This document shows positions 23,200-23,760 of a DNA stretch of 64,000 bases, piece by piece. How positions within the stretch are numbered: the first letter of the stretch is position 1; each line of letters begins with the position of its first letter. A program made the position numbers and the translations under genes. The stretch comes from a virus. Its lineage: Duplodnaviria > Caudoviricetes. The stretch is taken from IMG/VR virus record IMGVR_UViG_3300037722_001090. One strand, written 5' to 3'. Below the pieces are notes generated by a model. That model worked only from the letters and a program-made list of their open reading frames with translations. It ran no database searches and was not told the origin of the DNA.

Positions 23200-23760
23200 T
23201 AGTGCGTTACTACACCAAATGCTCTAAGGGTCTTTAATTGCATCGTTATCTTACTCTTCCCATTTACCCTAGATAACTTAAGTCGAGATTCAGGTCTGGA
23301 CCTAACAATTAAAACTGCATTAACTTCCTCCCCCTGTGATTATACAGTAACATGATATGGGTATCCATTACCGTCTCAGTAGTTAACCTACTCCACTCGC
23401 AATTCTTTAAAAGATGGCTACTTCTAAGCCCACTTCCTATTAAGTATTTTAGAAAACGCTCCTCTATCTTGCACGCAATCAAGAGGAGACATTATCAAAG
23501 TATGTTAAAGATCTTTCTCTATGCCACATAGCAATAATGATACTCGATAGTTGCTGCCATTAGACTCTCAACTCCTTACGGCTCTAACAGTGACTATTTA
23601 GATATTTAATTAATGGCCTAGGTCCGTAGGATAGCTCACGGCATGACTCCAGCCTTTGCTCATACTTCCATTAATTAAATAAATTGTGGTTTTTTGAGTT
23701 GTTTTATATACCTGAGGACTCCGCGATAGTTATCCCACAAACGTACAACCCGGTCATTAT
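23200..23760 (-). ncRNA. candidate large structured RNA containing a 23S rRNA L11-binding-site mimic
   Basis: ORF-free tract of about 550 nt; 23391-23438 reads AGGAAGTGGGCTTAGAAGTAGCCATCTTTTAAAGAATTGCG on the minus strand; ends uncertain. Confidence 0.6.

Follow-up and report, generated by a model that had tools for sequence, protein, structure and literature searches.

A family of phage RNAs with the architecture of the 23S rRNA GTPase-associated centre

Described rRNA mimics and the phage locus

The GTPase-associated centre (GAC) of 23S rRNA is among the most conserved and best-studied parts of the ribosome and is a target of thiopeptide antibiotics; its exposed loop positions 1067, 1068 and 1070 are near-universal in bacterial rRNA. 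A fragment of 58 nucleotides (nt) from this centre binds ribosomal protein uL11 and thiostrepton. Here we describe a free-standing copy of the same domain, an RNA of 278 nt encoded on the minus strand of a 64,000-nt stretch of tailed-phage DNA (Duplodnaviria; Caudoviricetes; IMG/VR record IMGVR_UViG_3300037722_001090), the whole of which is called the window below. Positions in rRNA follow E. coli numbering, and helices 42, 43 and 44 of 23S rRNA are abbreviated as H42, H43 and H44.

Mimicry of rRNA by mRNA leaders is a classical phenomenon, exemplified by the L10 leader (RF00557) and by the L1-binding site of the L11 operon, in each of which a non-ribosomal RNA resembles the rRNA site of a stalk-region protein. 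Such leaders are partial mimics that act in cis upstream of ribosomal-protein genes in cells, whereas the phage RNA is a near-complete copy of a domain with its tertiary structure, is found between tRNAs and has no conserved downstream gene. We know of no GAC copy in GOLLD (RF01998) or ROOL (RF03087), to which the GAC-like RNA has no sequence or structure match in Rfam searches. Both resemble it in being large structured non-coding RNAs, often of phages or prophages, that lie near tRNA genes (PMC12286853). Phages also encode decoy or accessory RNAs, namely tRNAs, tmRNA, Y-RNA-like tRNA mimics (PMC4201824) and the pseudo-ToxI of phiTE (PMC3475682), which are likewise small stable mimics thought to compete; they occupy the same tRNA-array niche as the GAC-like RNA, but none of them mimics an rRNA domain. 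The principle of mimicry therefore has precedents, and what is new is the free-standing copy of a whole rRNA domain. No published description of such an RNA was found in the literature covered, in which subscription journals are largely missing, and the GAC-like RNAs of phages form a robust and widespread class that is apparently undescribed.

The closest described structure is the GAC itself. The phage RNA has its three-way architecture and near-identical H43 and H44 loops, and it keeps the G1056.A1103 closure, U1060 and A1088, the 1082:1086 pair and the 1072/(1092-1099) triple, with covariation of the same type as in the rRNA. By contrast with the rRNA, it is closed by a variable helix of its own (P1) and does not continue into H42 and domain II, it is interrupted by inserted sequence between 1090 and 1091 and in some members also after 1077, it carries a UUUG linker and A or G at 1101, it is relaxed at 1067, 1068 and 1070, and it is encoded in phage tRNA arrays. 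In the window, where P1 consists of 22 contiguous Watson-Crick or GU pairs, the parts of the RNA are arranged as follows.

23181..23458, minus strand: whole GAC-like RNA, 278 nt, from the P1 5' strand to the P1 3' strand
23437..23458, minus strand: P1 5' strand, corresponding to the end of H42 (outward from E. coli 1055), which pairs with 23181-23202
23436, minus strand: equivalent of G1056, facing A1103 at 23203; in rRNA this non-canonical G.A closes the junction
23411..23435, minus strand: copy of H43 (E. coli 1057-1081) with the A1067 loop, A1067 being at 23425
23402..23410, minus strand: junction UUAAAGAAU (1082-1090), containing the tertiary pair U1082-A1086 and A1088
23220..23401, minus strand: inserted domain of 182 nt between 1090 and 1091, of class A (defined below), with conserved blocks and several helices
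23216..23219, minus strand: UUUG linker, the family signature ahead of G1091
23204..23215, minus strand: equivalent of H44 (1091-1102), GUGUAGUAACGC, with the A1095 loop, A1095 being at 23211
23181..23202, minus strand: P1 3' strand, complementary to 23437-23458

The initial annotation of the window had read this locus as a mimic of the GAC in a phage non-coding tract. That reading is strongly supported by the architecture, by covariation and by a covariance model of the family that recognises 23S rRNA, although only the 5' half of the copy had been noticed. The minus-strand sequence that it quoted for 23391-23438 agrees exactly with the letters of the window, and the rRNA string that it gave is the true E. 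coli rrlH 1054-1093, as comparison with the gene confirmed. The claimed match of about 40 nt between the two holds over 1054-1088, where 31 of 35 positions are identical to E. coli; the last 10 or so nucleotides (UUGCG against AGCG) are non-homologous, the UUGCG stretch being the beginning of the 182-nt insertion, with the true H44 equivalent at 23204-23215. The idea that the match could be a module of a larger non-coding RNA was partly right, in that the GAC copy frames a conserved inserted domain, while the closing helix, the insertion and the family had escaped attention. It was also correct that no other rRNA surrounds the match, as Rfam gives no large-subunit rRNA in the tract and the inserted domains are unlike the remainder of 23S rRNA. 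The tract free of open reading frames (ORFs), estimated at about 550 nt, measures about 690 nt (23097-23784) in the ORF list.

A comparison with Rfam 15, which had been suggested with GOLLD and ROOL in mind, gave no match to these or to any other family. At gathering thresholds the scan of the whole window yielded 21 tRNAs and nothing in the tract of the RNA, a search of 22900-23950 up to E = 10 returned no match, and in 12 member loci no match fell on the RNA at gathering thresholds. The suggested search for homologues found the match conserved in phage relatives, with helices and tertiary contacts that covary.

An 18-nt core pattern, with up to 3 mismatches allowed, occurs once in the window against 0.07 occurrences expected by chance. 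The window and E. coli differ at eight core positions, five of which are coordinated in the form of a swapped 1058:1080 pair and a swapped 1072/(1092-1099) triple. Within H43 there are four differences (1058, 1061, 1072 and 1080), with 1058:1080 compensated from U-A to A-U; over 1091-1104, 10 of 14 positions are identical to E. coli, and U1092-A1099 accompanies U1072. The locus does not behave as a fragment of an rRNA gene, given that its flanks pair with each other instead of continuing 23S rRNA and that H44 is split by 182 nt. Contigs from independent metagenome assemblies are identical to the window over 23177-23800 (X2, record 3) and over 23222-23619 (X5, record 7), which rules out a chimeric assembly. 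Contigs of 45-88 nt with depths of 45-299, present in three metagenome runs, align to 23403-23438 with two differences; these are genuine 23S rRNA of the community and show the closeness of the phage copy to it.

Conservation of the rRNA fold and the inserted domain

The first relatives were found in Xanthomonas phage XacN1 and Ralstonia phage RSP15. A 27-nt pattern for the 5' half gave 89 loci in viral contigs, true rRNA flanks being present in one of them (L073), and a pattern for the 3' half gave at least 120 loci. Relatives occur in at least 190 viral contigs and in about 20 cultured phage genomes, and 112 unique full-length members with lengths of 105-416 nt were extracted. The cultured carriers span at least 10 host genera and include XacN1, XbC2, XaC1, RSP15, GAP32, CBB, Serratia phage BF, several Erwinia pEa_SNUABM phages, Yersinia phage fHe-Yen9-04, Pseudomonas phages pf16, Astolliot, Milchi and UNO-G1W1, Aeromonas phage 4_4572 and a Vibrio phage; the RNA is unannotated in all of them. 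The phage of the window, which derives from sediment or soil metagenomes, has no close relative among 50,697 phage records. In the members, the motif UUUG-GCGUAAYAGC-ACAC, corresponding to the H44 loop and 3' strand, lies 47-340 nt downstream of the H43-like hairpin, and the stretch after the H44 3' strand complements the sequence just upstream of H43.

In species-representative genomes, matches to a 17-nt 3' pattern were mostly due to chance: 14 of the first 120 passed the H43-motif filter, and 11 of the first 100 scored above 60 bits with R1, the covariance model described below. The real members among the first 120 matches are almost all on contigs of metagenome-assembled genomes (MAGs) that are phage-like and have dense tRNA arrays. 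The most compact members, of 93 nt and 67.9 bits (L249:3128-3220 and L283:5923-6015, both on the plus strand), are on contigs binned as Oscillospiraceae and Eubacterium MAGs.

Conservation was assessed in 49 unique members retrieved with the 5' pattern, in a reciprocal set of 45 3' halves and in an alignment (A3) of 31 compact members. Because the invariance of 1062-1088 in the 5'-pattern set is imposed by the search pattern, a rescan was made with the 3' motif, in which the 5' halves were located by P1 complementarity (n=61). In the 49 members, the 1058:1080 pair is always formed, as GC in 17, AU in 14, UA in 16 and CG in 2, and the P1 pairs from 1055:1104 to 1047:1112 are formed in 76-100% with two to six pair types. 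In A3, all members form the five innermost P1 pairs (100%), with two to five types, compared with 58% in shuffles; pairing of the outer part of P1 arises partly by construction, because the member ends were trimmed to their paired extents. The non-canonical closure 1056/1103 is G.A in 37/49 and A.A in 11/49. For the base triple 1072/(1092-1099), 36 members have C/C-G and 11 have U/U-A, leaving two exceptions, and the window has the coordinated U/U-A minority state. Conn, Gutell and Draper are said to have described the same coordinated change of this triple for rRNA itself in 1998. The tertiary pair 1082:1086 also covaries in the family, as U:A, C:G and A:U.

In the 3'-motif set, near-invariance is seen at U1060 (60/60), A1077 (60/60), G1071 (59/60), A1085 (58/61) and A1088 (54/61). 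In the 45 3' halves, the H44 loop retains G1093 in 45, U1094 in 44, A1095 in 43 and A1098 in 45, accompanied by signatures peculiar to the family, namely the UUU linker (43/45), the following G (39/45) and an A at 1101 (42/45). The basal helix of the insert is 83% paired in A3 and 50% paired in shuffles. Taken together, these substitution patterns indicate that both the secondary and the tertiary architecture of the rRNA is under purifying selection in the phage RNAs. The folding free energy of the whole RNA in the window is not significant (minimum-free-energy z-score of -0.5), and the case therefore rests on covariation and not on predicted stability.

The covariance model R1 was built from the 31 compact members, none of which belongs to class A, the subclass of the RNA in the window. 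R1 nevertheless matches the window at full length (23195-23444, minus strand; model positions 1-162) with 74.2 bits and an E-value of 3.2e-20. Other class A members score 58-89 bits, and the values for individual phages are 89 bits for XacN1, 69 for RSP15, 84 for GAP32, 82 for CBB and 103 for pf16. Genuine E. coli 23S rRNA is recognised at 1048-1111 with 46.4 bits. Mimicry thus holds in both directions, with the window nearer to the phage family than rRNA is.

The RNA of the window also has the defining parts of the family. P1 joins the sequence 5' of G1056 to the sequence 3' of A1103, and the H43 copy is followed by the junction UUUAAAGARU and by an insertion that opens with a basal helix. 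At the 3' side, the signature UUUG-GYGUARNARC-RCAC, in which the H44 loop is kept and a purine replaces the U of rRNA at 1101, appears as UUUGGUGUAGUAACGCAC. Some of these parts take rarer forms in the window: the junction reads AAAGAAU, as in 3/49 members, the remainder having G at 1089; the base at 1101 is G, as in 3/49 members; and the basal pairing UUGC/GCAU is weak, a basal helix not being called by RNAalifold in class A. The determinants for binding of the uL11 C-terminal domain, U1060, A1077 and A1088, are all present in the window and are 89-100% conserved in the family. A second R1 match in the window, at 5470-5598 on the plus strand, reaches 9.2 bits (E 0.33); it contains GCGUAACAGC without H43, all tRNAs are on the other strand, and chance probably accounts for the match.

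Class A comprises the RNAs of the window, XacN1, RSP15 and seven viral contigs, the inserts of which have in common the conserved blocks UUGCGAG, CAGGGGRAGGA..GYAGUUU and AAGACCCUUAGAGCA and the conserved asymmetric loop GGGGAAGGACAAGYRCAG. RNAalifold predicts 41 pairs for this class, 23 of them with compensatory changes, and at six pairs of a 10-bp helix both sides have changed in 3-7 of 10 sequences. In a relative contig of low depth (X3), the insert carries five substitutions, none clearly compensatory. Across the family the insert measures 47-340 nt and shrinks to about 40 nt in compact members (L012, 105 nt in total). Inserts of other classes are unrelated in sequence, and one such class (B) carries a GNRA hairpin, CC(G/A)-GNRA-(C/U)GG. 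An rRNA origin of the inserts was rejected, as local alignment of 100+ inserts with E. coli 23S rRNA, the GAC being masked, gave a median z of 0.26. A mini-ORF at about 23310-23335 (Shine-Dalgarno-like GGAGG, then AUG CAG UUU UAA) was rejected as well: a start codon is missing at this place in XacN1, and the block takes part in RNA pairing.

A stem-closed hairpin resembling the sarcin-ricin loop (SRL), AGUAC-GNRA-GGA, in which a bulged-G motif is combined with a tetraloop, lies inside the insert in only 4 of the 112 members, all of them long-insert members (368-414 nt). Its presence in these four points to mimicry of the whole factor-binding site.

L193:8577-8990, minus strand: member with the sarcin-ricin-like hairpin
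L022:3689-4067, minus strand: member with the sarcin-ricin-like hairpin
L128:7746-8113, minus strand: member with the sarcin-ricin-like hairpin
L184:8155-8527, plus strand: member with the sarcin-ricin-like hairpin, the loop being AGAA

No such hairpin was found in the insert of the window, which has a plain hairpin, GGUC..GACC, at the equivalent place. In about 9 members (L099, L122, L132, L150, L151, L153, L174, L180 and L181), the 3' strand of H43 holds a second insertion, a further hairpin placed between A1077 and U1078.

Setting in tRNA arrays and possible functions

At 77 of 91 loci there are tRNAs within 5 kb of the RNA, and 651 of the 653 tRNAs near the 112 unique member loci are on its strand. 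A tRNA ends at most 10 nt before P1 in 19/112 members and starts at most 10 nt after P1 in 19/112, suggesting that the closing helix marks the unit that tRNA-processing enzymes would release. Judged from this arrangement, the RNA is a discrete unit of phage tRNA arrays that is bounded in many members by predicted tRNA processing sites. In the window, all 21 tRNAs are on the minus strand, as is the RNA, which is placed in a tRNA-rich region between a tRNA at 21944-22016 and an array starting at 29931. Unlike many members it adjoins no tRNA, the nearest being about 1.2 kb away. The only recurring neighbour proteins are HNH and GIY-YIG homing endonucleases, each in at most seven loci; no protein gene is a conserved neighbour of the RNA across the loci, and gene neighbourhood thus indicates that it is not linked to any protein gene. 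Genes for uL11 or bL12 were not found in five complete genomes of carrier phages, so any ribosomal-protein partner must come from the host.

We put at about 0.5 the probability that the RNA of the window is a stable, trans-acting phage non-coding RNA whose GAC copy serves as an off-ribosome decoy for host uL11, for agents aimed at the GAC, or for both, a proposal drawn from sequence comparison. The two ends of the RNA would assemble into a self-closed GAC copy (the H42 end, H43 and H44; E. coli 1051-1108), with the family-specific domain sitting in the 5' strand of H44, and off the ribosome the RNA would fold like the 58-nt GAC fragment. The contacts of uL11 are with the H43 minor groove, the U1060-A1088 pair and the tertiary fold of the GAC (PMC2175356), and host uL11 would be bound by the phage RNA through the minor groove and this pair. 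The face formed by A1067 and A1095 would be presented as a decoy that competes with ribosomal GACs, the preferred targets being GAC-directed toxins or immune effectors. A toxin of this kind exists in Tre23, which ADP-ribosylates H44 at 1095-1098 (PMC8661411), and RNA-directed ADP-ribosyltransferases act in phage defence, as in CmdTAC (PMC11618068). Such a decoy would have a parallel in the proposed buffering, by phage tRNA arrays, of attacks on host tRNAs. Retention of the H44 loop, although uL11 binding should not need it, argues for a decoy. In the window, since no tRNA adjoins the RNA, the 22-bp closing helix could serve as an RNase III-type processing site. The claim is weaker for uL10 than for uL11, because H42 proper, the uL10 site, is replaced by a helix of variable sequence.

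Several points weigh against the decoy. The exposed loop bases are looser than the remainder of the core, at 51/60 for A1067, 43/60 for G1068 and 48/60 for A1070; they vary more than in rRNA, which speaks against selection on the complete set of contacts with translation factors. The insertion in the 5' strand of H44, or the second insertion after A1077, might hinder binding of uL11 or uL10. A decoy would also have to hold its own against the tens of thousands of ribosomes in a cell. The literature yielded no anti-phage system directed at the GAC, and no canonical promoter or terminator was found flanking the copy in the window. Finally, a pure decoy model does not account for the conserved inserted domain.

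More tentatively, and at odds clearly short of even, a free particle of the RNA and uL11, perhaps with the uL10/bL12 stalk and in some members with the sarcin-ricin-like loop, would capture, mis-activate or divert proteins that act at the GAC. Candidates for the proteins so affected are immune toxins directed at the GAC or SRL, alarmone synthetases of the RelA type and translational GTPases. If this reading is true, the RNA would be the first functional copy of an rRNA domain to occur naturally in free-standing form, and phages would control or protect host translation at a level not recognised before.

The same conservation pattern can be read in other ways. Activation of RelA requires uL11 (relC mutants), and it is conceivable, though unlikely, that the RNA soaks up exchangeable or new host uL11, leaving uL11-poor, 'relaxed' ribosomes on which RelA is inactive, with no rise of (p)ppGpp in infection. 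A sponge of this kind would agree with the uL11-fold determinants (the contacts in PMC2175356) being best conserved while the factor-facing loop bases are relaxed, and with the lack of a phage-encoded uL11 in the five complete carrier genomes. However, ribosomes without uL11 translate more slowly, which would hurt the phage too, and most uL11 sits on ribosomes; moreover, the H44 loop, dispensable for uL11 binding, is kept at 96-100%, and the sarcin-ricin-like hairpin of some members is left unaccounted for. An equally improbable alternative shifts the activity to the inserted domain, with the GAC copy as a uL11- or stalk-binding handle or a folding scaffold, so that the whole would be a composite ribonucleoprotein and not a decoy. 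The insert is large (182 nt in the window), conserved within class A and backed by compensatory changes, and the classes have motifs of their own in the GNRA hairpin of class B and the sarcin-ricin-like hairpin of the long class. By contrast, inserts differ wholly between classes and can be as short as about 40 nt, the GAC core being constant throughout, indicating that the GAC copy is the common denominator of the family. More doubtful still is an off-ribosome factor site, composed of the RNA, host uL11 and the stalk and in some members of a sarcin-ricin-like loop as well, that would sequester or trigger a GTPase or GTPase-like protein such as EF-G, an immune GTPase or a complex associated with RelA. 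On the ribosome, factors bind at a site made up of the GAC and the sarcin-ricin loop (PMC8661411), and both elements are present in four members; yet the second element is restricted to those 4/112 and absent from the RNA of the window, and loop positions 1067, 1068 and 1070 are variable. A low affinity also counts against it, as isolated rRNA fragments bind factors weakly.

The genomic setting bears on two further explanations. A cis-regulatory leader of the ribosomal-protein type, sensing free uL11 or uL10 and controlling a downstream gene, would have the classical precedents of the L10 leader and the L1/L11 operon, and in the window a small ORF (22932-23096) begins about 85 nt past the 3' end of the RNA (23181). 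However, the loci have no downstream gene in common, many copies are flanked by a tRNA on each side at a distance of at most 10 nt, uL11 and bL12 genes were not found in the five complete carrier genomes, and there is no Rfam leader match. A leader is therefore largely refuted by context, and we regard it as very improbable. That the locus is non-functional debris or an artefact, whether a fragment picked up from host rRNA or the product of chimeric assembly, is scarcely credible. The short, high-depth rRNA contigs from the same metagenomes that align to 23403-23438 would be in keeping with it, but the same sequence recurs in independent assemblies, relatives are present in complete genomes of cultured phages, and non-rRNA signatures (the UUUG linker, A or G at 1101, the insertion and the closing helix) come together with widespread covariation.

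Upkeep of a near-exact GAC copy by hundreds of large phages would imply an unrecognised phage interaction with the translation apparatus or with its attackers. It could reveal GAC-directed defence systems, a route by which the stringent response is disarmed, or a role of tRNA arrays as decoy islands for the translation machinery. The family can also serve as a natural experiment that separates GAC nucleotides needed for the fold and uL11 binding from those needed for factor function, and it supplies natural insertion-tolerant sites for RNA engineering. Tractable cultured carriers include pf16, RSP15, XacN1, GAP32 and CBB.

Flanking features and neighbouring genes

Two features of the minus strand lie upstream of the RNA in the ORF-free tract of the window.

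23459..23488, minus strand: hairpin CUCCUCU...AGAGGAG, directly upstream of P1, with a run of U after it that makes up the beginning of P1
23778..23807, minus strand: promoter-like site TTGAAA-18-TATTAT, the sole plausible sigma-70-type start upstream in the tract, identified by consensus match only

The hairpin has a predicted folding energy of -11.2 kcal/mol (z -2.0) and could either act as a terminator for the gene upstream or extend the RNA at its 5' end. The search that gave the promoter-like site found 6 such sites against 4.1 expected, which is weak evidence; in RSP15 and XacN1, near-consensus boxes (TTGACA/TTGACT-N17-TATAAT/TAATAT) stand ahead of the copies. Further upstream, at 23618-23678 on the minus strand, an 11-bp stem (UUAAUUAAUGG / CCAUUAAUUAA) encloses about 50 nt; its fold is not significant (z -0.7) and it has no Rfam match, and it may be another small RNA or nothing.

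The neighbours of the RNA in the window are small ORFs without a Pfam match and a gene of the NAPRTase family (24052-25014, minus strand; PF04095, E 3e-46), which lies about 590 nt upstream of the 5' end of the RNA, with an ORF of 87 amino acids (23785-24048) between the two. Just upstream of the XacN1 copy lies a gene with the annotation 2'-5' RNA ligase; together with the NAPRTase gene of the window, it makes anecdotal links to NAD and RNA repair.

Elsewhere in the window, one tRNA match on the minus strand (53406-53531) extends over 126 nt, much longer than a normal tRNA, with 51 bits over the full model, and may have an intron or insertion inside. Among the member loci, a viral tRNA array that also holds a GAC-like RNA encodes a full-length bacterial class A RNase P RNA (L094:9376-9703, minus strand; 264 bits), and tmRNA matches occur in L074 (3380-3461) and L220 (1758-2108).

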